Shown here one piece after another: positions 12,738-63,891 of a stretch of 64,000 nt of DNA. The translations under genes and the position numbers were made by a program. Position 1 is the first letter of the stretch. Each line of letters starts with the position of its first letter. The notes under the pieces are model-generated. The model had not been told where the DNA came from, made no database searches, and saw only the letters and a program-made list of their open reading frames with translations. The DNA is from Myxococcales bacterium (GTDB lineage Bacteria > Myxococcota > UBA727 > JABDBI01), in assembly GCA_023248595.1 (NCBI GenBank), contig JAHFEG010000009.1:7739-71738 (forward strand). The letters run 5' to 3'.

Positions 12738-14045
12738 CTAAAAGTGCGGTGACTTTTCATCCCGTGGCATTTCAATGAAATAGCCGCGAATTTCACCCAC
12801 CAAGTAAAGAGAGCCGGCGACTAATACAAATCCTTTTTTCTCTTTGGCAACGACCAGGGCTTTTTCGATTGCTTCTTGGCTTTCGCTTGTTGTTAGCAAA
12901 AAAAATTCAAAACCTTCTTTCAAAAAAGCATCTTTTAGATTGGCCACCGGTAAAGCTCGGGGAACTTTCGCCTGTGTTATAATTACTTTTTCCAACCGAG
13001 GCAGCGCTGCTCGCCAAAGCGTTGTCATCTGTTTGATATCGTGCCCCTCTGTCATTCCAATCACAAGCACCATCGGTAAATTGACCAGACGTCCATCTGT
13101 CATGACTGTTTCCAGCAATGCCTGCATGCCCGCGGGGTTATGCGCGCCATCGAGAATCACCAGCGGATCTTTGTTCACTGTTTCATAACGTCCAGGCCAT
13201 TTGGCGTTCTCCACACCCCAGCGCCGCATATTTAAATCAGGAACTAGTCCAGAAAGTTCAATCATAGAAACAGCCACTGCTGCATTATGAATTTGATGAG
13301 AGCCACGTAATGAGGGTTTGCTTTTTGGCAGAAGTAATTTGTCTTGGTGAAAAACACACATGCTATCGTCGAAATTACTGATCTGAATATCGGAGCCTAT
13401 TTGCCACAAAGGTGCTTGCATTTTTTCTGCGTATGATTTGATGACTGCTGCCGCTTCTGGATTTTGAGCGTCACTAACCACGGGAATATTTTTTTTAATA
13501 ATACCTGCTTTTTCTGTGGCAATTTGGGCGAGCGTATTTCCTAAAATATGTGCATGATCAATATCGATCTGTGTGATACCGCACACTGTAGGCTGGACGA
13601 TATTCGTTGCGTCTAAACGACCGCCTAAACCAACTTCGAGAATAGCGACTTTCACATTTGCTCTTTGAAAAGCGAGAAGTGCCATTACCGTCATGCGCTC
13701 AAAAAAAGTTGTGCTTTCAGAGTGCGATAAACATATTTCATTAACCAGTATCTCAACTGCGCAGAATTCTTGTTCACTAATATGTTCGCCATTAATTAAA
13801 ATGCGTTCGCGTACACATTGCAGGTGCGGACTGGTATAGCGCCCACGCGATATTTTTGCTTTTGCTAAAATTGCATCGAGGAAGGCGCAGGTGCTGCCTT
13901 TCCCGTTGGTGCCAGCAATATGAAAAATCAAATAGTTTTGTTGTGGGTTATTTAAAAGAGCAATCAATTTTTGTACACGATCAAGGCCGAACTTTGGTGC
14001 TGGTTCTAAATTGAGAAGTCTACTTAAACTTTTTTGATAATTCAT
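12738..14045 (-). CDS. folC: Folylpolyglutamate synthase/dihydrofolate synthase
   Basis: HIAGTNGKGST, EVGLGGRLDATN, WPGR, LDGAHNP, GSLYLVG. Confidence 0.96.
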   Translation of the reverse strand: MNYQKSLSRLLNLEPAPKFGLDRVQKLIALLNNPQQNYLIFHIAGTNGKGSTCAFLDAILAKAKISRGRYTSPHLQCVRERILINGEHISEQEFCAVEILVNEICLSHSESTTFFERMTVMALLAFQRANVKVAILEVGLGGRLDATNIVQPTVCGITQIDIDHAHILGNTLAQIATEKAGIIKKNIPVVSDAQNPEAAAVIKSYAEKMQAPLWQIGSDIQISNFDDSMCVFHQDKLLLPKSKPSLRGSHQIHNAAVAVSMIELSGLVPDLNMRRWGVENAKWPGRYETVNKDPLVILDGAHNPAGMQALLETVMTDGRLVNLPMVLVIGMTEGHDIKQMTTLWRAALPRLEKVIITQAKVPRALPVANLKDAFLKEGFEFFLLTTSESQEAIEKALVVAKEKKGFVLVAGSLYLVGEIRGYFIEMPRDEKSPHF

Positions 14046-14123
14046 TTATTTGCCACACCCTATTGCGACTGATTGAAAATCCACAAAATGTATATGCATT
14101 CTATTTTAAAAAACGGAGAGACC

Positions 14124-15185
14124 ATGTCTAATGTTGGTTGCATCTCTTATAAAGACGCTGGTGTCGATGTTAACTATGGTGAAACATCTGTCAAGCATAT
14201 GAAGCCTGCTGCGCAAAGGACCCATCGCGCTGGAGTCTTAAGCGGCATTGGCGGGTTTGCCGGTTTATTTTCTCTGAAAGATGCGCTGCCACAGTTGCAA
14301 GATCCGGTGCTTGTTTCTGGAACAGACGGTGTTGGTACAAAATTGCTGGTTGCCATTGAGGCCAATCGACACGAAGCCATTGGACAAGATTTGGTAGCGA
14401 TGTGCGCTAACGATGTTCTGTGTGTCGGAGCCAAGCCCCTTTTCTTTTTAGATTATTTTTCCTCAGGCAGCTTAGAAAAAAGTCCATTGCTGCGCGTTGT
14501 GCAAAGCATCGCTGAAGCTTGCCAAAGCATTGAGTGCGTTTTAATTGGCGGAGAGTCTGCTGAAATGCCTGGACTTTACATGCAAGGCCATTATGACCTC
14601 GCGGGATTTTGTGTGGGCGTCGTTGAAAGAAAAAACATGATTGATGGCGGTCGAGTTAAGCCCGGCGATCAAATCATTGGACTTGCTTCTTCTGGACTTC
14701 ACTCCAATGGTTTTTCTTTAGCCCGCAAAATTATTTTGGAGCGCATGAATCTATCGGTTCACGAAAGTATTTTTATTGAAGGTCATGGCAATGTTGCACT
14801 TGCTGAAATTTTGCTGGAACCAACTAGGTTATATGTTAATTCGATCCTTTCTTTATTGAATGACGGTGTTCCTATCAAAGCCATGGCCCATATCACAGGT
14901 GGAGGAATTGCGGGTAATTTGCTTAGGCCTTTTCCCAAGGGGCTCTCTGCAACTGTTGACACGCGTACTTGGATAGAACCAGCGCTGTTTAATTTATTAA
15001 GAACCCAGGGTCCGGTGACTGAAGAGGAAATGCGTAAAACGTTTAACCTTGGTATCGGTTTTGCTATCGTCGTTGATTCAACAATTGCAAACCAGGTTGT
15101 GGAAAATTTAACCCAATCTGGAGAGTCGGCTGCTATCATTGGCCATGTCGTTGAACGAGATGGCCCCGTTGCTTTTGTGGGTTAA
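14124..15185 (+). CDS. purM: AIR synthase
   Basis: YKDAGV, GTDGVGTK, GGESAEMP, SSGLHSNGFS, HITGGG; GGAG SD. Confidence 0.97.
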   Translation: MSNVGCISYKDAGVDVNYGETSVKHMKPAAQRTHRAGVLSGIGGFAGLFSLKDALPQLQDPVLVSGTDGVGTKLLVAIEANRHEAIGQDLVAMCANDVLCVGAKPLFFLDYFSSGSLEKSPLLRVVQSIAEACQSIECVLIGGESAEMPGLYMQGHYDLAGFCVGVVERKNMIDGGRVKPGDQIIGLASSGLHSNGFSLARKIILERMNLSVHESIFIEGHGNVALAEILLEPTRLYVNSILSLLNDGVPIKAMAHITGGGIAGNLLRPFPKGLSATVDTRTWIEPALFNLLRTQGPVTEEEMRKTFNLGIGFAIVVDSTIANQVVENLTQSGESAAIIGHVVERDGPVAFVG

Positions 15186-15249
15186 AATCAGGTCCTTGTG
15201 GGGCTATCATTCAAAGACCTCATTAGAAACGCATGCGCTGATGTCTTAT

Positions 15250-16020
15250 TTAAGCCCTATCGATGGGAAAATCGGTAAAGCGCTGCAGCTCTCTGTCGAT
15301 AATGGCCATGAGCTTTTCACCGGCAATATTCGCTGGTTCTCTCATAATGATGTATTCGATGAGATCACCATCTAAAAGCGGGCGATTATCGAGACCGTTT
15401 AAGAGTGGAAATTGGGCACGCCACTGATCTTTGTTGAATCCGTATAAATGCTTGGCATAAACAATTTTTGATTTGTCCTCCCTGGCGGGGATTCCATTTA
15501 GAAATGGATATTTCATGCGCAACAAATGGGCTTCACTGGGAACCACTTTTGGCTCGGGTAACGGCTCGGGTCTAATTTGTGCCTTTAATTCTTTGTATGT
15601 TTGTTGCCAATTGCTAAACGGTGAGATTGGATAGGAAGAAGGTTGCTCTTGTTTGTCATGCCAGCGCAGGCTGGCATCCAGATTGTCGACGCCGGGAAGA
15701 CTGCCCTCTCCTAATTTTTCCAAGGAAAAATTTTCCTCTCCCGCTAGCGCAGGCGAGGCATTTTTAAAAATATATTTCTTGTAGCGTTTATCGAACAACC
15801 CAACATGCTGAATCAGCCCTGCTTCTTCGAGCGCTTTCACGGCACGACGCAAGGTGCTGTCACAAATTCCAAGCAGCTTACTCAGCTCTTTGGGTTTAAC
15901 CACAAATTCACCAACTGCACCTTTGGGTAAAAGAGAAAGTTCAGCCCAAACAATGCGAGCACGTGGCGATAAATGAAAGTTACGAATAATTTCAACAGGA
16001 ATACAAACCTTGTTTTCCAT
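15250..16020 (-). CDS. Winged-helix (Rep/HTH_36-like N-terminus) protein of unknown function, copy 1
   Basis: LSPRARIVWAEL...KELSKLLGICDSTLRRAVKALEEAGLI HTH; close paralog at 34669 differing mostly at synonymous sites. Confidence 0.75.
   Translation of the reverse strand: MENKVCIPVEIIRNFHLSPRARIVWAELSLLPKGAVGEFVVKPKELSKLLGICDSTLRRAVKALEEAGLIQHVGLFDKRYKKYIFKNASPALAGEENFSLEKLGEGSLPGVDNLDASLRWHDKQEQPSSYPISPFSNWQQTYKELKAQIRPEPLPEPKVVPSEAHLLRMKYPFLNGIPAREDKSKIVYAKHLYGFNKDQWRAQFPLLNGLDNRPLLDGDLIEYIIMREPANIAGEKLMAIIDRELQRFTDFPIDRA
15654..15760. repeat. In-frame palindromic elements (RPE/WPE-like plus CCTCTCCCG-type REP)
   Basis: tgtcatgccagcgcaggctggcatccag (15654-15681, encodes LDASLRWHD) and cctctcccgctagcgcaggcgagg (encodes SPALAGE). 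Confidence 0.7.
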
Positions 16021-16235
16021 AAACAATCCTTCCGCTCAGGAGCAAACCTGAACTTGACAAGGTCAGTCGAAGATTTTATGGATTCTTCCGACTGACATAA
16101 ACGGTCTGCCGCGCCTCAAGCTTTAGTAGGATTGGGCGCGGTACTTTAATTGACCGCACACCATGCGCGATCAATTCGAGTATTTAGAATCTAAATTAGA
16201 TGTGAATTTAAATGCAAATTGTTTTTGAAAATAAT
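16021..16235 (-). promoter_or_regulatory. Sigma70 promoter plus structured four-hairpin 5' leader, copy 1
   Basis: ATTATTTTCAAA, TTGCAT (16217-12), 18 nt, TAGATT (16193-88); hairpins colinear with 34465-34668. Confidence 0.65.
16089..16150 (+). ncRNA. Putative cis-antisense RNA to the copy-1 leader
   Basis: TTGACA at 16054-59, weak -10 TATGGA, terminator-like CCGCGCC..GGCGCGG-tacttt. Confidence 0.35.
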
Positions 16236-16270
16236 TTTTCTAACACTCCAAAGGACCGCATCTCGTGTAC

Positions 16271-16936
16271 ATGCAACCATTAATTTCTGACACGCCGCGC
16301 ACACCGAAAAATCCACTTCGTTTATGTGTTTTTGTTTCGGGAAATGGTTCCAACTTGCAAGCACTCATCGATGCTGCCAATGCACCTAATACTTGTTTTA
16401 AAATCGCCCTCGTGATTTCTAATATCAAAAATACTTTTGCGCTTGGGCGCGCGCACGCTGCCGGAATTCCGGCAGTTACTATTTGTCATAACGATTTTTC
16501 TTCACGTCTAGATTTTGAAAAAACATTAATTACGCAGTGTATTGATTATCACGTCGAACTTGTGGTTTTGGCTGGCTTCATGCGTGTGCTCAGTCCTCAT
16601 TTTTTGAGCTATTTCCCAAATCAGGTTGTCAATGTCCATCCTGCTCTATGCCCAGCGTTTCCAGGCATTCATGCCGCGCGACAAGCGCTTGCTCGTGGTG
16701 TAAAATATGCGGGCTGCACTGTTCATTTGGTAAACGAAGGTGTCGACGAAGGACCAATCATTGCTCAAGCGATTGTGCCGGTTTACCCAGACGACGATGA
16801 AAATAGATTACAAAAGCGGATTCAAATTCAAGAACATCTACTGCTTCCAAAAATGATTCAAGAAATTGCGATAGGTAATGTTTTAATTGCCGACAGTGAA
16901 ATTTGTCTGAGGAAGAAAAGTGATCCCGTTATCTAA
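16271..16936 (+). CDS. purN: GAR transformylase
   Basis: VSGNGSNLQAL, LAGFMRVL, NVHP, GCTVHLV.EGVDEGPIIAQ. Confidence 0.96.
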   Translation: MQPLISDTPRTPKNPLRLCVFVSGNGSNLQALIDAANAPNTCFKIALVISNIKNTFALGRAHAAGIPAVTICHNDFSSRLDFEKTLITQCIDYHVELVVLAGFMRVLSPHFLSYFPNQVVNVHPALCPAFPGIHAARQALARGVKYAGCTVHLVNEGVDEGPIIAQAIVPVYPDDDENRLQKRIQIQEHLLLPKMIQEIAIGNVLIADSEICLRKKSDPVI

Positions 16937-17006
16937 GTCATAGATGGACTATTTAAGAACACCGCTTTGTTTACCCATCAGGATCAAAAAATATACGAGG
17001 CTTGAT

Positions 17007-17468
17007 GTGCATAAACCGCTGCTTCATGGATTTTTTCTTGTGTCATTTCTATTATTTGCTTGTCCAATGATGGCGCTTACAGAAGAAGAAAAAGCGTTCA
17101 TAGAATATGCAAAAGCAGGTAACCTAGATGGAGTTCAAGGGGCTGTCGCTAATGGCATTAATATAAATGCGCAAAACGAAGACGGGCAAACCGCTCTTCA
17201 TTGGGCTGCTTGGAAAAGCCATGAAAAAATTGTTGATTATTTACTTCTTCGCAATGCAGATACAACGATTCAAAGTCATAAAGGACATGATGCGGCTTTT
17301 CTCTGCGAAAATAAAAAAATCAAACAGATGTTGAACAATGCGAGCTGGCGAATTAACTCAAGAAGAATTGTCTCTTCTTTGCCGCCAACAAGCGTTGGCC
17401 TTGTATCTGCATTCTCATTCTTGATCACGTTCTTTTACGATAGCCTCGCTGCTGTATCCAAACAGTAA
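17007..17468 (+). CDS. Ankyrin-repeat protein with signal peptide and C-terminal hydrophobic segment
   Basis: GININAQNEDGQTALHWAAW...IVDYLL; start uncertain (16944 or 17007). Confidence 0.8.
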   Translation: MHKPLLHGFFLVSFLLFACPMMALTEEEKAFIEYAKAGNLDGVQGAVANGININAQNEDGQTALHWAAWKSHEKIVDYLLLRNADTTIQSHKGHDAAFLCENKKIKQMLNNASWRINSRRIVSSLPPTSVGLVSAFSFLITFFYDSLAAVSKQ

Positions 17469-33265: not shown

Positions 33266-33431
33266 GATGCAGATTCCTTTTACGCGCAGGCCTTGGAATT
33301 GTGATGTACGATGCCTCAACAATTAAAAGGTTCTACTCATGCCCTACTTTTCTGAACTTGTTTACTTAAAAACCCGGAAATATTTTTACAAAGTTCCACT
33401 GTTTCGTTGAAGGCTGGCTACTTTGCATTTT

Positions 33432-34004
33432 ATGAAACCGGAGCGGGTATTGAATAAAACGACAAGGGCGATCGTGTTTGCTGTTTTCATGCTAATTTCT
33501 CTCCACCCACGGACTACAATCGCGGCCGTACACCCCAACACTGTTGCGGCATGTGCGTTTGGGATTTTTTTGGTGGGCACAGCGCTCATTTTGACGAGCG
33601 CTTTTCAATTTGGAAAATCCGGAGAAAAAGAGGTTCTCATGAGTTGCCCCCAATCCAGTAAGTTGGTTTGCTGCTCAATGAGCGAGGGTACTTTCTTGAA
33701 TTGCAAAGAAATGACAGAGCCCTGCCCTGATAAGAAGGGTCCTGTTTGCCTGCCGACGAATCTTGAAAGTGCTTCAACGTTCCCTGCTTATCATGAAAAA
33801 AAAATGGACCAAGTGATTGCGTTTGCCTCGGCAGTCATTGGTCTCATCGCAGTAGGCATATCCTTTGGTTTATATAAACTCCCACTTGGACACCAAACCG
33901 GGGTCATGCCGGGCGTTCACCGCTTGGCCAACCCTCCTCCGGCCTATCGTTCTACGTCTTCTATGCCGCCGCCATATGAACAAATTGCAGGAGGACGAGT
34001 TTAG
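33432..34004 (+). CDS. Cys-rich membrane protein with C-terminal PPAY and PPPY motifs
   Basis: Signal-like N-terminus, TM, Cys-rich loop, TM, tail NPPPAY...MPPPYEQ. Confidence 0.6.
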   Translation: MKPERVLNKTTRAIVFAVFMLISLHPRTTIAAVHPNTVAACAFGIFLVGTALILTSAFQFGKSGEKEVLMSCPQSSKLVCCSMSEGTFLNCKEMTEPCPDKKGPVCLPTNLESASTFPAYHEKKMDQVIAFASAVIGLIAVGISFGLYKLPLGHQTGVMPGVHRLANPPPAYRSTSSMPPPYEQIAGGRV

Positions 34005-34005
34005 T

Positions 34006-34434
34006 ATGAAATCAGCTGCACGTATTATTTTTTTGAGTCTATTTACATTTTTTTTGATGCTGTCTCCCAAGGAAGCCGAAGCTAACTTTTATAAAAATAC
34101 GCAACTCACTCAAATTGCGTGGCTGGTCAGTATCATGGCTTTTATCTATCCGGCCCTGTATTTGCAAGGCGTCTCTAAAAATCCAGGGCTGACTCCTCAG
34201 TGTCCAGATTGGTTTTTACTTGCATATTGCGATCCAAATATTGATCATTGTGTAACGCCGCGGGAAGATGGAAAGGCGGCAGTTTGCATTAATCCCGATG
34301 CAAACAAAAATGCGACTCAATTTCCTGTTTATGTTAAAGCTGGTCGCCCAAATGTTTTAGCCATCCCACTTTTAATAATAGCAGGCGTCTTTTCTAGCGT
34401 CGCCTCCGCAGTTTTATTTTGCTGCCGTCTCTAA
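34006..34434 (+). CDS. Cys-rich membrane protein, probable paralog of 33432
   Basis: GGAGG SD; shared CP..L..C..C..K..VC..A..FP.Y loop pattern between two TM segments. Confidence 0.6.
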   Translation: MKSAARIIFLSLFTFFLMLSPKEAEANFYKNTQLTQIAWLVSIMAFIYPALYLQGVSKNPGLTPQCPDWFLLAYCDPNIDHCVTPREDGKAAVCINPDANKNATQFPVYVKAGRPNVLAIPLLIIAGVFSSVASAVLFCCRL

Positions 34435-34464
34435 AAAAGACAAGACCTTGACCTAAGGTCGCAT

Positions 34465-34668
34465 ATTATTTTCAAATTTTAATTGCTTTCAATTTGGTTT
34501 TTAATTTATGGTCTTCTTACTGCTTTGATTCACATGGTGTGCATCAAAAAAAGTACCGCGCCCTAATCTGACAAAAGTTGAGGCGCGGCAGATTCACCTA
34601 AGAACCGGGGCGAAAATTAGCACTCCGGTTCTTGTTGTCAAGCTTTGTCGAAAAAGCTTGGAGTGTTT
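34465..34668 (+). promoter_or_regulatory. Sigma70 promoter plus structured four-hairpin leader, copy 2
   Basis: ATTATTTTCAAA, TTGCTT (34483-88), 18 nt, TATGGT (34507-12); hairpins covary with copy 1. Confidence 0.65.
34545..34607 (-). ncRNA. Putative cis-antisense RNA to the copy-2 leader
   Basis: Minus-strand TTGACA (34641-36), 16 nt, TGc-TAATTT; terminator CCGCGCC..GGCGCGG-tac-T7. Confidence 0.45.
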
Positions 34669-35493
34669 ATGGAAAACAAAGTTTGTATCCCCCTCGATAT
34701 TATTCGCAACTTTAATTTGTCGCCACGGGCTCGTATTGTTTGGGCAGAGCTTTCTTTGTTGCCCAAAGGTGCTGTTGGCGAGTTCGTCGTTAAAATAAAA
34801 GAGCTAAGTCAACTTTTGGGAATTTGTGACAGTACCTTGCGTCGTGCTGTGAAAGCGCTCGAAGAAGCGGGGCTGATCCAGTGTGTTGGGCTTTTTGAAA
34901 AACGCCACAAGGAATATGTGTTTAAAAACGCCGAGGAAGTGCTGATGGATTGTCATTCCGGACTCGTTCCGGAATCCATCCCAAGCACTGAAAACCTGGA
35001 TGCCAGCCTGCGCTGGCATGACAAAGAAGAAACGCCAATTCCCAGCGTCGACAGCCTGGATGCCAGCCTGCGCTGGCATGACAAACAAGAGCAGCCTTCT
35101 TCCCATCCAATTACGCCGTTTAGTAATTGGCAACAAACATACAAAGAATTAAAAGCACAAATGAAACCCGAGCCCACACCAAAGCCAGAACAAAAAGTGG
35201 ACCTAAGTGAAACTGATTTGCTGCGCATGAAATATCGATTTGCCAATGGAAAACCCTGCAGTGATGACAAACCCAAACTTGCTTACGCCCAGCAGTTGTA
35301 CAACTTTTATCAAAATCAATGGCGTGCTCAATTTCCACTTTTAAACGGTCTCGATAACCGTCCGCTTTTAGATGCTGGTCTCATCGAATATATTATCATG
35401 AACGAACCAGCAAATATTGCCGGTGAAAAAATGATGGACATCGTCGATAAAGAGCTACAACGCTTTACCGACTTTCCTGTCGACAGGGCTTAA
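34669..35493 (+). CDS. Winged-helix protein of unknown function, copy 2
   Basis: GGAG SD; highly similar to 15250-16020 except in the central linker. Confidence 0.75.
   Translation: MENKVCIPLDIIRNFNLSPRARIVWAELSLLPKGAVGEFVVKIKELSQLLGICDSTLRRAVKALEEAGLIQCVGLFEKRHKEYVFKNAEEVLMDCHSGLVPESIPSTENLDASLRWHDKEETPIPSVDSLDASLRWHDKQEQPSSHPITPFSNWQQTYKELKAQMKPEPTPKPEQKVDLSETDLLRMKYRFANGKPCSDDKPKLAYAQQLYNFYQNQWRAQFPLLNGLDNRPLLDAGLIEYIIMNEPANIAGEKMMDIVDKELQRFTDFPVDRA
34951..35085. repeat. In-frame RPE/WPE-like palindromes; 31-bp unit repeated at 60-bp period
   Basis: tgtcattccggactcgttccggaatcca (34951-78); cctggatgccagcctgcgctggcatgacaaa at 34995 and 35055. Confidence 0.8.
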
Positions 35494-35619
35494 AGAGAAG
35501 CATCAAAATAACGAAACCCTCTTCTAAACAGACATATCGGGGAGGGTTTGCTGGTGTTTCTGACCATTGTGCGATTATTGCTGATATCTTAAAACGACAA
35601 GCTTGCACCGCCGGCACTT

Positions 35620-36105: not shown

Positions 36106-37002
36106 ATGTTTGTGTTCAATCAGGCACATTATTTTTTAGCAAACCAAGAACGGCTGGTTGAAGAATCTGCGGAAGCGGTTTTCAAATTGCTGCTGGACTT
36201 TTTTTCGACACACTCTAACACGCGTTCATCCTATGAAAAAGCCATTTTTGATACGCTGTTTTTTCTCTGCAGACCGGGTTGGATAGGGGAAACTTTAACC
36301 GAGCCAATTAAAAAAGAGGCCTATGAAAAACTTCTTCATTTAGGGCAACCGATTTATTACTCTAAAGACGAAAACACGCTTCGAATGTTTTCGAAAAATG
36401 CGACTAAAACAATTGCATCACTAGCGCCGCCTAAAAAATCAACAAATAAATCAAAGAGTCGTTCCAATGCAAACGATATTTCTGCCATTATTAAGGCTGA
36501 ATTAGATACATCTGAAGATAAGAAAAGCGCTGTCGCTAAGGCTGTATTTCGCATGTATCATGCTGGGAAAAAGCAAAAACGCCAATTCGTTGCTCCGATT
36601 CTAGGCGACGACAATCCGCTTCGAACTGTTTTAGGGTTACCCAAGTCACAAAAAACGACATTGCCATACGATGATGTGCGCATGCATATTTTAAAATGCA
36701 CCAAGGGTAATGCTAAAAAAAATGAAGTACCTCTCATGACTCTTTTGCAAAAAGCTGCGCCTTTTTCGGCTCGTATTTTACAAAGCGTACTGGGAGTAGA
36801 AATTTACAAACGGTTTAAGCCGGTTGGCTATTTTGATCAGCAGTGTCAAATCGTTCTCATCGAAGTGACTTCATCTTCTGATGCCTATGAGCTAACCTTT
36901 CGCAAGGCAGAACTTCTTAAGCTACTCAAAACCGTTTCTGGTTTTGAAAAAATTACAGACATACGCTCTGTTGTAGGTGTTAAGAGTCCAAATCGGGAGT
37001 AA
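36106..37002 (+). CDS. Protein with C-terminal DUF721/DciA-like domain and long N-terminal extension
   Basis: VLGVEIYKRFKP...LIEVTSSSDAYELTFRKAELLKLL...ITDIR pattern. Confidence 0.55.
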   Translation: MFVFNQAHYFLANQERLVEESAEAVFKLLLDFFSTHSNTRSSYEKAIFDTLFFLCRPGWIGETLTEPIKKEAYEKLLHLGQPIYYSKDENTLRMFSKNATKTIASLAPPKKSTNKSKSRSNANDISAIIKAELDTSEDKKSAVAKAVFRMYHAGKKQKRQFVAPILGDDNPLRTVLGLPKSQKTTLPYDDVRMHILKCTKGNAKKNEVPLMTLLQKAAPFSARILQSVLGVEIYKRFKPVGYFDQQCQIVLIEVTSSSDAYELTFRKAELLKLLKTVSGFEKITDIRSVVGVKSPNRE

Positions 37003-56803: not shown

Positions 56804-57311
56804 AGATTTCCGCTCCAAAGGAGCAACCCGTGCAACAGCCCAGGGTTAAGCGCAGCGGTACCCTGGGAGAAACATATCCCCTAACAAAATCGCCCTGAAG
56901 GGGCAAAGACTAATCCCATAAATATTTTTCATCGAATGAAAGACAGGTGTTTTTTAAAAATAGACGCATCTCATCTTGAAAACTATTTTGTTGATGGTGT
57001 TTTTCTTGTTCTCTAATGTATCGACGCACAAAATCAATTTTAGAAGAGCTTACCGAAAAAGCACCGCAGCCATTTTGCCAGGCAAAAGCAGCCATGTAAT
57101 AAAACAAATTAGGACGAATACGATCATTTAAAAACGCGTATCTGAATTGGGTGCTAAAATTAGGTGGATGTTAATTTCTGCGAGAGATTGGGCCATGCTT
57201 TTAATGCCCTTTCAGGGCGATTTGGATGGTGTTGCTGTGTTTTCCCAGGGTACCGCGCTTTGCGCTTAACCCTGGGCTGTTGCACGGGTTGCTCCTTTGG
57301 AGCGGAAATCT
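56804..57311. mobile_element. Defective REP-associated tyrosine transposase (RAYT/IS200-like) locus with inverted REP flanks
   Basis: 51-bp perfect terminal inverted match extending imperfectly to about 105 bp; hairpins CCCAGGGT..ACCCTGGG and GCCCT-GAA(A/G)-GGGC. Confidence 0.85.
56910..57196 (-). pseudogene. Y1 (HUH) transposase remnant
   Basis: MAQSLAEINIHLI, frameshift, STQFRYAFLNDRIRPNLFYYMA joined directly to FAWQNGCGAFSVS..YIREQEKHH..FDEKYLWD; HUH segment missing. Confidence 0.85.
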
Positions 57312-62641: not shown

Positions 62642-63232
62642 ATGAAAAGGTTTCTTTTATCGCTAGCGCTTACACTGGTTGCTCTGCCCGGCATGGCGGA
62701 CACTGTTCGTTTGGGTAATCCTGCCTATGGTGGAACAGGTTGCCCAGGAGGCTCTGCTTCAGCGGCCTTGAGTCCAGACGCTCAATCACTTAGCCTTTTG
62801 TTTGATCAATATGTTGTAGAAGCAGGTGGAAATTCTGGCAGAGTCACTGATCGCAAAACCTGTAATGTTGCGATACCTGTTCATATTCCCCAAGGAATGA
62901 GTCTTTCAATTTTCAAAGTAGACTACCGTGGCTTTAATAGCCTACCTTATGGGGCATACTCACAATTCAATGTCGAGTATTTCTTCGCTGGTTCACGTGG
63001 ACCAAGCTATAGCAAAACTTTTTATGGCTCACTAAACGACAACTATTTGTTAACCAATACGCTGGCAGCTTCCGCTATTGTTTGGTCCCCTTGTGGACAA
63101 GAAGTGATTTTGCGTTCTAACTCGAGCATGCTTGTTCGAACTAATAATCAAAGAAGTCAGGCTTTCGCAACGGTAGATAGTGCTGATTTTCGTGCAGGCT
63201 TAGTATACCATCTACAATGGCGTCGTTGCTAG
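62642..63232 (+). CDS. DUF4360 family secreted protein
   Basis: Signal peptide; YGGTGCP, RKTC, DYRG, WSPCG, WRRC. Confidence 0.88.
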   Translation: MKRFLLSLALTLVALPGMADTVRLGNPAYGGTGCPGGSASAALSPDAQSLSLLFDQYVVEAGGNSGRVTDRKTCNVAIPVHIPQGMSLSIFKVDYRGFNSLPYGAYSQFNVEYFFAGSRGPSYSKTFYGSLNDNYLLTNTLAASAIVWSPCGQEVILRSNSSMLVRTNNQRSQAFATVDSADFRAGLVYHLQWRRC

Positions 63233-63251
63233 TAAGCGGAATTAGAAAAAT

Positions 63252-63280
63252 AAAAACCACCCTGTTTGGGGTGGTTTTTT
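63252..63280. terminator. Bidirectional intrinsic terminator
   Basis: AAAAACCACCC-tgtttg-GGGTGGTTTTT between convergent genes. Confidence 0.85.
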
Positions 63281-63300
63281 AATTACGAGGACATATCTTT

Positions 63301-63891
63301 TTAGCAACGTTGCCATTTTAAATGATATTGAATCCCTGATTTAATATCCATGCTGTCGAGTGTAGACATGGCTTCTGCAAAATTAGGAGTTGTCTTGACA
63401 AACATGCTGGTATTGGCTCTCAAAATAACGTCTTGACCGCAGGGGGACCACGTTGTTGCTTGGCCAACCAAATCGCTGCTGAGTAAATAATTGTCAACCA
63501 AGGGACCGCTAAATGTTTTTGTGACACGCGGTCCACGTGAACCAGCGAAGAAATACTCGACATTGAATTGTGAGTATGCCCCATAAGGTAGATTATTAAA
63601 CCCTCGATAATCAATTTTGAAGATAGAGACGGTTAATCCTTGGGGCACGTGGACAGGAATACCGATGTTACAGGATTTTCGATCTCCTTGCTTTCCTGAA
63701 GTACCTCCTGTTTCGACGACAAACTGATCAAAAAGAATTGTTAGAGATTTTGCATCAGGACTCAAGGTGGCTGAAGCAGAACCGGCTGGGCAACCATTAC
63801 CGCCATAGGCAGGAATACCCAAACGAATATCATCAGCAAAGCTGGAAAAAGAGAAGAGGCCAACAATGGCAAGCAAGGAAACTTTCTTCAT
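63301..63891 (-). CDS. DUF4360 family secreted protein (paralog)
   Basis: Signal peptide; YGGNGCP, RKSC, DYRG, WSPCG, WQRC. Confidence 0.88.
   Translation of the reverse strand: MKKVSLLAIVGLFSFSSFADDIRLGIPAYGGNGCPAGSASATLSPDAKSLTILFDQFVVETGGTSGKQGDRKSCNIGIPVHVPQGLTVSIFKIDYRGFNNLPYGAYSQFNVEYFFAGSRGPRVTKTFSGPLVDNYLLSSDLVGQATTWSPCGQDVILRANTSMFVKTTPNFAEAMSTLDSMDIKSGIQYHLKWQRC

Follow-up and report, generated by a model that had tools for sequence, protein, structure and literature searches.

The region examined here is a 64,000 nucleotide (nt) stretch of the genome of a Myxococcales bacterium (contig JAHFEG010000009.1, positions 7,739 to 71,738; G000:C42:7739-71738, where G000 denotes the source genome of 1.99 Mb, in 61 contigs and 99.99% complete), referred to below as the window. 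Between the purM and purN genes, and antisense to both, it harbors a unit of about 1 kb comprising a putative promoter region, a structured 5′ leader and a single open reading frame (ORF) for a protein with an N-terminal winged helix-turn-helix (wHTH) domain. This unit, copy A, has a diverged counterpart on the opposite strand, copy B. The features of the purM-purN locus are as follows, in window coordinates:

14073..15185, + strand: purM, left flank (AIRS and AIRS_C Pfam matches)
15187..16269, - strand: copy A with its unique ends, the whole segment missing from the purM-purN site of a relative (run X5 contig)
15187..15249, - strand: 3′ tail of copy A, 63 nt past the stop codon, with a weak hairpin, unique in the genome
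15250..16020, - strand: ORF of copy A, 256 amino acids (aa) from ATG 16020 (ORF list and start inspection)
15253..15609, - strand: C-terminal helical domain, motif FPLLNGxDxRPLLD, restricted to the family (model and profile search)
15610..15765, - strand: disordered linker (AlphaFold), its DNA containing palindromes like repetitive extragenic palindromic (REP) sequences
15655-15678, - strand: linker palindrome GATGCCAGC-CTGC-GCTGGCATGAC (read from the DNA)
15766..15999, - strand: N-terminal wHTH, PF13730 (HTH_36; 25.3 bits; predicted local distance difference test, pLDDT, ~90)
16027..16193, - strand: leader, hairpins P1-P4 and Shine-Dalgarno sequence (covariance model R1 positions 1-167; G000:C42:23765-23931)
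16194..16239, - strand: A/T-rich promoter region forming the left end of the shared unit (candidate -35 TTGCAT, candidate -10 TAGATT, upstream A/T tract)
16271..16936, + strand: purN, right flank, probable start ATG 16271 (Formyl_trans_N match)

The corresponding features of copy B are:

34465..34504, + strand: promoter region (alignment with other copies)
34505..34670, + strand: leader P1-P4 (covariance model; G000:C42:42243-42408)
34669..35493, + strand: ORF, 274 aa from ATG 34669 (ORF list and start inspection)
~34951-34977, + strand: linker palindrome E1 (read from the DNA)
34999-35022 and 35059-35082, + strand: linker palindrome E2, twice in a 60-nt direct repeat (read from the DNA)
35514..35549, + strand: terminator-like hairpin AAACCCTC...GGAGGGTTT past the stop codon, read from the sequence and not common to other copies

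The ORF list gives longer frames for both genes, namely 15250-16026 (-; 258 aa, start TTG 16026) for copy A and 34645-35493 (+; 282 aa) for copy B. The ATG codons at 16020 and 34669 (MENKVCIP) are the likely true starts, since a GGAG-type Shine-Dalgarno sequence precedes each and database relatives start there. The two translated products share 72% amino acid identity (BLASTP; e-value: 8e-143), and the likeness at the DNA level spans the ORFs and ~200 nt upstream, in the form of inverted repeat arms at 15249-15558/35185-35494 (79%), 15757-16029/34660-34932 (83%), 15547-15698/35039-35190 (88%) and, within the leader, 16105-16153/34544-34592 (80%). A first-pass annotation had described a ~1 kb unit with a diverged twin at 34.5 kb, the similarity running from ATTATTTTCAAA upstream of the -35 box to the stop codon. 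This description is borne out, as the leaders are likewise alike and the similarity of this pair begins with ATTATTTTCAAA (16235 in copy A, 34465 in copy B) and stops at the stop codon. Beyond the stop codon, the unit continues for 30-60 nt as a tail whose hairpin varies in sequence.

Copy number, insertion and turnover of the unit

The unit is widely dispersed in G000. A protein search returned 43 matches, while an nhmmer DNA profile built from 13 copies gave 56 matches, comprising 13 complete copies, two copies cut on the 5′ side beside rve-type transposase ORFs resembling those of insertion sequences (C6, C13), two internal N-halves (C2, C7), 17 fragments at contig ends and about a dozen short matches to the linker palindrome alone. 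From the same profile 24 5′ ends and 26 3′ ends can be counted, alongside 21 sense-strand leaders identified with the covariance model and 20 PF13730 matches. The family thus consists of about 24-26 diverged copies in the 1.99 Mb genome, of which the units make up 1.06%, and a further copy begins only 24 nt past the end of the window (C42:71763-72162). The first-pass annotation was therefore right about the twin, but its count of two copies was too low. Left and right ends are common among the 13 complete copies compared, and in the closest pair (95% identical) the similarity ends sharply 33 nt after the stop codon. Nine of the 13 complete copies are flanked by convergent 3′ gene ends, and 2-150 nt separate the copies from the neighboring genes. 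The latter are housekeeping genes such as priA, polA, nadE, holA, speA and aroB (names read from translations), none of which is recurrent.

Direct evidence for insertion comes from Logan contigs of four sequencing runs, which were aligned to window positions 14000-17400. A 612-nt contig of run X5, obtained from lake water in a different study from the run that best covers the source sequence, matches 14947-15186 (28 mismatches in 240 nt) and 16270-16634 (8 mismatches in 365 nt), joining 15186 to 16270 with seven other letters between them and 1083 nt skipped. As this contig joins purM directly to purN, at a spacing of 7 nt and without 15187-16269, copy A is an insertion. Adjacency of purM and purN represents the older state, since the two genes overlap in the relative G002. 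It is, however, not universal in the family, as purM was not found beside purN in G016, where the ORF upstream of purN encodes 132 aa; the earlier statement that the two genes are usually adjacent holds for G002 and for the X5 contig. No target duplication is evident at this empty site, the only one known. An imperfect GGTCCTT(G)TGG repeat was seen by eye at both ends of the copy A insertion, but was discarded, the chance of its occurrence being estimated at roughly 0.1. The unique ends of copy A are not repeated elsewhere in the genome, and a 12-nt match of its 5′ end to the Shine-Dalgarno region of other copies reached an e-value of only 1.7. With about 25 diverged copies and the insertion between purM and purN, the unit behaves as a mobile element, though one without a recognizable transposase.

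Comparison with the sister species G001, whose flanking genes share 72-95% protein identity with those of G000, points to turnover. Seven of ten G001 copies occur at places where G000 has no copy, while the other three are found in the same neighborhood as a G000 copy, one in opposite orientation, one 3.3 kb off and one by glpK. Copy A is thus not fixed in position, the relative having purM and purN joined without it, and few positions are common to G000 and G001. Copy B may be shared with G001, as both are beside glpK; the G001 unit sits ~140 nt after that gene, and two overlapping ORFs for small membrane-protein-like products that lie between glpK and copy B (window 33423-34434) are missing from G001. 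At the FHA-panD junction, G000 has a spacer of only 11 nt, whereas that of G001 is ~690 nt long and contains REP-like palindromes and a truncated unit. At the nucleotide level, homology between the two genomes ends at the flanking gene, and the junctions compared between them are not resolvable. Several G001 copies (L023 3001-3312 and L025 3001-3369) are ORFs of 103-122 aa that encode the N-domain only and end inside the palindromic linker, with other genes directly after; these are either truncated copies or a stand-alone form of the wHTH protein.

The encoded protein is under selection, as the first-pass annotation had proposed. The ratio of non-synonymous to synonymous rates (dN/dS) between copies A and B is 0.106 for the N-domain (28.5 synonymous and 15.5 non-synonymous differences; dS 0.79), 0.216 for the C-domain (32.3 and 37.7 differences; dS 0.68) and 0.27 for the linker, with medians of 0.10 and 0.22 for the N- and C-domains, respectively, over 107-120 pairs. 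The comparison of rates confirms purifying selection on both domains, although the related claim that differences in the conserved domains are mostly synonymous holds, by raw count, for the N-domain and not for the C-domain. Sixteen of the 17 ORFs listed are intact, the remaining one being truncated where its contig ends. Three clades can be distinguished among the C-domains, a main one (90-96% identity), that of copy A (82-95%) and a pair on contig C37 with 54% identity to the rest; as these clades do not follow N-domain similarity, the copies recombine. At G000:C37:14201-17276, two units in direct orientation, with C-domains 100% identical, flank a Fic-domain gene (motif HPFLDGNGRLGR) in an arrangement resembling a composite element.

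Such a record might also be expected if the copies were an ordinary family of host genes, for regulators or nucleoid proteins, that had expanded. This family would have spread by segmental duplication, been trimmed by selection to the stretch from promoter to stop codon and never been mobile. The age of the copies (median dS 0.6-0.7), the purifying selection, the invariant recognition helix, the evident gene conversion among copies and the three G001 copies in shared neighborhoods are all consistent with this explanation, and neutral flanks would be unrecognizable at that divergence. For the same reason, the sharp ends of the A/B pair prove little at a dS of about 0.7, and the argument is carried by the ends of near-identical pairs and by the empty site. 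Several observations fit a non-mobile family poorly: purM and purN are joined precisely in the relative and overlap in the outgroup G002, the ends remain sharp in the 95% identical pair, seven of the ten G001 copies lack a counterpart, copies sit squeezed into gaps of a few bases that separate housekeeping genes, and G016 has a similar single-gene unit in five copies at 88-90% identity. We therefore regard a non-mobile host family as improbable.

The structured leader and the encoded protein

The A/T-rich region at the left end of the unit occurs in three or four types, each common to several copies, with candidate hexamers TTGC.. (-35) and TAnnnT (-10). A simple consensus scan called promoter-like sites facing outward at the left end of both window copies (16207-16235, +; 34463-34504, -). 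In copy A the site is directed into purN, whose ATG lies 36 nt downstream, and with the operon split it could now drive this gene.

Downstream of this region, the leader of ~165 nt forms four predicted hairpins. P1 has a UGG-type triloop; P2 has a G+C stem that is invariant (ACCGCGCC/GGCGCGGC) and a loop of ~20 nt that varies; P3 occurs in at least seven stem versions, every one of them paired, with an A-rich loop; and P4 abuts the Shine-Dalgarno sequence. All four hairpins fold in 30/30 leaders examined by single-sequence folding, and RNAalifold on a MAFFT alignment found compensatory changes in 10/19 pairs. A covariance model (R1) built from these 30 leaders yielded 22 hits in G000 (one of them weak and antisense), 13 in G001, nine in G016, seven in G018 and two in G009, and each hit checked is directly upstream of an HTH_36 (PF13730) ORF on the same strand. 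In a 62-row alignment fitted to the model structure, a procedure that favors the structure and a bias from which the MAFFT/RNAalifold and single-sequence results are free, 91.7% of cells pair, compared with 72.6% in shuffles and 29-42% in slid controls, and 31/33 pairs change on both sides, a value reached by 0/500 shuffles. The alignment contains 72 G-U and 54 A-C cells, a count that does not decide which strand folds. Judged from these alignments, the four-hairpin leader is kept by compensatory changes in at least three genera, always directly upstream of the gene. Rfam returned only four tRNAs for the whole window at the gathering threshold and, with e-values up to 10, a best leader match of 15.2 bits against a gathering score of 65.3. 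A separate repeat, 100% identical at six contig ends and probably an insertion sequence, sits at the same P1-loop base (CACATG|) in two different units (G000:C18:7277 and C31:5874); as the same loop base is hit in both, this repeat may target the P1 hairpin.

Relatives of the gene in other genera are likewise multicopy PF13730 genes, encoding 150-230 aa, and upstream of them P1 (with a CAUGGUG center), P2, P3 and P4 are alike while the stem sequences differ. PF13730 matches number 20 in G000, seven in G001, 11 in G009, 19 in G012, 13 in G016 and 24 in G018, as against 0-4 in other members of the family and 0-2 in the 5-8 Mb genomes of the order. The G016 repeat unit is a single gene of ~660 nt. 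No relative of the unit was found on viral contigs, and a metagenome scan located only four loci.

The AlphaFold model of the copy A protein comprises a confident winged helix (residues 10-87), a disordered segment (91-139) and a confident helical domain (165-255). PF13730 is the sole Pfam match (copy A: 25.3 bits; copy B: 28.0 bits; gathering cut-off 25) and is found in 18/18 family members at e-values up to 5 (best: 1.6e-7). Compared with 48,161 chains, the N-domain model ranked the RepA_N chain 4pta_D first (Z 9.1; root mean square deviation 2.3 over 85 residues), followed by generic wHTH proteins (Z ~8) and the N-domains of DnaB and DnaD (Z 7.2-7.5). Foldseek placed 4pql (e-value: 8e-3), 4pt7, 4pta and 5kbj at the top (e-values: 8e-3 to 3e-2), and the PHROG matches are all replication initiators or DnaD-like loaders (e-values: 4e-5 to 5e-5), with O-like matches for copy B at 2e-4 to 7e-4. 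The best fold match predicted for the N-domain is thus a RepA_N plasmid initiator, which leads ordinary wHTH regulators by a small margin. Across the family, the recognition helix is invariant. Identities offered by NCBIfam and PADLOC were weak, generic wHTH matches (Csa3/CasR, LrpA) and were rejected, and a sequence search of solved structures gave nothing below an e-value of 0.04.

The C-domain, modelled alone with a pLDDT of 85, had no match in the fold search, in which the best score was Z 5.2 (an ORC subunit) and no initiator was listed. A profile of this domain retrieved 13 proteins from 1.84 billion cluster representatives, 9/9 of those inspected sharing the architecture, and 33 relatives were retrieved from 5.8 billion proteins by a word-indexed search. 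The Atlas scores for the domain, 'Rep' at 0.93 and Phg_2220_C at 0.91, are leads only, as chance reaches such scores 4-10 times in 100, and the Atlas structure rows are all below TM 0.5. The protein is unlikely to be a recombinase itself, since the invariant residues of its C-domain are only P, L, G and N. Both parts of the first-pass description of the protein, an N-terminal wHTH like those of phage and plasmid initiators and an unrecognized C-terminal domain, agree with these searches. Nor does it appear to be an ordinary known regulator, with PF13730 alone at the cut-off, an initiator-type fold match and a C-domain almost without relatives.

The linker DNA of nearly every copy contains two palindromes in mirror orientation, resembling a REPIN pair: TGTCAT-stem-loop-stem-ATCYAG (read as CHSGLVPES), a spacer and the mirror form (read as LDASLRWHDK). 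Exact palindromes of the two types occur inside units in 7/17 and 8/20 cases, respectively. A polA-like ORF (encoding a DNA polymerase I-like protein; G000:C34:4911-7363) carries the pair in-frame (ACHSGLVPESTPNTKNLDASLRWHD), a further locus being C57:20152-20247, and in relatives from other genera the linkers are filled with REP-like peptides (PAKAGIQ, LDSSLRWNDK, PPFSKGE). The palindromes of the linker may act in cis or may equally be an old REPIN insertion that multiplied with the unit.

This layout invites comparison with minimal replicons. PMC5703833 describes the pSK41 Rep protein as having a wHTH N-domain, a linker that is dispensable and is specified by the origin DNA, and a primase-binding C-domain, with an antisense RNA of ~83 nt acting on the rep leader; in the pPR9 Rep protein, which supports a mini-replicon, the N-domain is PF13730 instead of RepA_N. 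RepA_N/pPR9 replicons resemble the unit in being a 1-2 kb module with an N-terminal winged helix initiator (PF13730 in pPR9), a small helical C-domain, a dispensable linker (its DNA being cis-acting in plasmids) and a structured leader of ~100 nt or more, which in plasmids is under RNA control. In contrast, the units are chromosomal, number about 25, lack PF06970 and have a C-domain that matched no listed structure; their linker repeats are REP-like and also found elsewhere, and their host is of Gram-negative type and labelled Myxococcales. The lambda O gene has an origin of dyad-symmetric repeats inside its linker-coding DNA. O-like proteins such as DopC (HTH_36 + Phg_2220_C) pair PF13730 with PF09524 (PMC5509034), so that the unit shares with them a PF13730 N-domain followed by a C-terminal domain, which is partner-binding in the O-like proteins. 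Unlike lambda O, however, the units lack PF09524, have no P-like or helicase-loader gene beside any copy and are not located in a prophage. What the unit has in common with minimal replicons is its layout rather than membership of a family.

We consider it rather unlikely that the unit is an integrated mini-replicon of lambda-O, RepA_N or pPR9 style, with an origin in the linker, an antisense-controlled leader and an episomal replicating form. The RepA_N initiators at the top of the N-domain fold matches, the replication of pPR9 and the origin and antisense RNA of pSK41, the palindrome pair conserved in nearly every copy and the Atlas leads all favor such a replicon. The antisense strand read by eye adds to these, with TTGACA and a hexamer starting with TA, 16-17 nt apart, in the P3 loop and the P2 stem followed by a T-run. 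The scan, however, did not call this antisense promoter, whose -10 is without its final T in three of five stem types. Furthermore, the palindromes also occur outside units, PF06970 and PF09524 gave no match, the Atlas scores are of a size that chance can attain, the assembled contigs showed no circle junction, and about 25 origins in one chromosome would need silencing.

Resident transposases and the route of spread

Pfam searches and a survey of neighboring genes identified no transposase, integrase or second gene inside the complete copies, and the unit ORF has no Y1 transposase domain (PF01797). The best flanking inverted repeat was no better than in shuffles in 12/13 full copies, the left flanks of the 13 copies share no motif, and their 3′ hairpins are unlike P1-P4 and unlike one another. 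The absence of a transposase, terminal inverted repeats and a target duplication, reported in the first-pass annotation for the window, hence extends to 13 full copies and, for the duplication, one empty site. IS110-type transposases (PF01548) and reverse transcriptases (PF00078) are both absent from G000. An integron gene cassette was also considered and rejected, the copies being dispersed singly between housekeeping genes and not in an array by intI/attI. G000 itself encodes three intact Y1 (HUH) transposases and one Y1 fragment, rve-type transposases and three Phage_integrase (tyrosine recombinase) matches. The window contains a decayed member of the Y1 group, an element of ~508 nt (56804-57311) with 51-bp perfect (~100-bp imperfect) terminal inverted repeats and an 86-aa Y1 remnant, of which fuller relatives with an intact Y1 gene are located at G000:C47:26863-27503 and C35:652-1334, and another remnant at C55:13864-14260.

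The IS200/IS605 family transposes without terminal inverted repeats or target duplication, using hairpin ends and a fixed target motif. The unit is similarly small and without terminal inverted repeats or target duplication, has a hairpin-rich 5′ end and shares its genome with Y1 genes; it differs in that its gene does not encode a Y1/HUH transposase, its end hairpins are not alike and no target motif was found. One reading is therefore that the unit is non-autonomous cargo of the resident HUH (Y1; IS200/RAYT-type) transposases, moved as single-stranded DNA via hairpins, which would explain the missing inverted repeats and target duplications. All other unit-bearing genomes searched have Y1 genes (G001 one, G009 three, G012 five, G016 four and G018 seven), the units are hairpin-rich and often flanked by REP-like palindromes, and three Y1 genes are within ~1.6 kb of a unit (G000:C35, G012:C172 and G018:C179). 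These three adjacencies compare with a roughly estimated 0.7 expected, and contig ends are where repeats of either kind accumulate. Genomes that lack units have Y1 genes as well, Y1-element ends and unit ends have no sequence in common, there is no common target tetranucleotide, and copy A has no REP at its ends. Taken together, cargo status is a doubtful explanation. With REPIN-RAYT systems the unit shares an inverted pair of REP-like palindromes in the linker, the same pair in-frame in polA and the presence of Y1 genes. Rickettsia palindromic elements insert in frame into genes. Both systems would explain the linker, but not a gene unit of 1 kb.

On balance, copy A probably represents a dispersed single-gene element, about 1.0-1.1 kb long, that is self-contained and confined to its lineage. 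The best description of the unit is a cassette, self-contained and either mobile or recently so, for an initiator-type DNA-binding protein under leader control. It would be transcribed from its own promoter, and the structured 5′ leader, with P4 against the ribosome-binding site, would set the amount of protein, under control of either the protein itself or a countertranscript. The protein would bind DNA through its initiator-type winged helix, while the C-domain would recruit a partner.

Several observations weigh against this interpretation. The copies are old (dS about 0.7; median 0.6-0.7) and nearly all intact, a state closer to that of a gene family being maintained than to that of a typical insertion sequence. 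There are no conserved terminal hairpins, target motif or duplication among the 13 copies and the one empty site. Y1 genes occur in 16/20 family genomes, including genomes without units, and show no correlation with units, while beside the Y1 genes the sole match of nhmmer and the leader model is the leader belonging to the C35 unit itself. Neither a circular nor an excised form appeared in the assembled contigs of the four runs, material which, being contigs only, barely probes for one; the higher summed contig depth over the unit reflects many copies, some of other organisms, and was not used. PF06970 (RepA_N) is absent from the Pfam matches of 18 members up to an e-value of 5, and the search of G000 for PF09524 (Phg_2220_C) at e-values up to 10 gave one unrelated weak match (C39) and none in units. 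Linker palindromes are also found outside units, for example in-frame in polA, and the consensus promoter scan called no sense promoter in copy A or B. The model-fitted leader alignment and its strand-neutral G-U count belong on the same side.

The first-pass description of a self-contained unit spreading by an unknown route is still accurate, as the route is not established. Mobilization in trans by the resident HUH (Y1) transposases, or by another hairpin-dependent single-strand route, is tentatively put forward as a possible mechanism. Recombination of a replicon-like episome into the chromosome seems less likely, REP-mediated ectopic recombination scarcely more than an outside chance, and a new recombinase activity of the protein itself very improbable, with the rest of our expectation falling to something else. 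A more far-reaching proposal, which we consider unlikely, is that the unit is a new autonomous single-gene mobile element, for which the initiator-like protein, the leader and the linker palindromes are enough for copying and re-insertion. Such an element could be a mostly integrated minimal replicon, or could recruit host replication or repair proteins to hairpin DNA, without a classical transposase or integrase, and its leader would represent a new class of cis-regulatory RNA, perhaps with a matching countertranscript to stop the ~25 copies interfering with each other.

If the unit moves by itself, it would represent a class of mobile DNA that is invisible to current annotation, because the latter looks for transposases and integrases. 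Regardless of self-movement, the leader is a motif conserved across genera and without an Rfam match, the protein domain occurs in only 13 of 1.84 billion cluster representatives, and, in a genome that is reduced and probably host-associated, a gene-sized repeat has split the conserved purM-purN operon. The family furthermore lends itself naturally to testing how far beyond plasmids and phages initiator-type winged-helix proteins with sites inside their own genes occur.

Additional features of the window can be noted. An ORF of 298 aa at 36106-37002 has a weakly DciA-like C-terminus (e-value: 3.7e-4; 21.1 bits; cut-off 24). Inverted repeats of 151 and 174 nt, 75-79% complementary, occur at 62688-63845, and BLAST places them only here. 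Adjoining purN, an ankyrin-repeat protein is encoded at 16944-17468, while a protein that appears leucine-rich-repeat-like by eye is encoded elsewhere in the genome (G000:C48:45921-47507). The presence of such ankyrin and leucine-rich-repeat-like proteins in a small genome suggests that the organism is host-associated.

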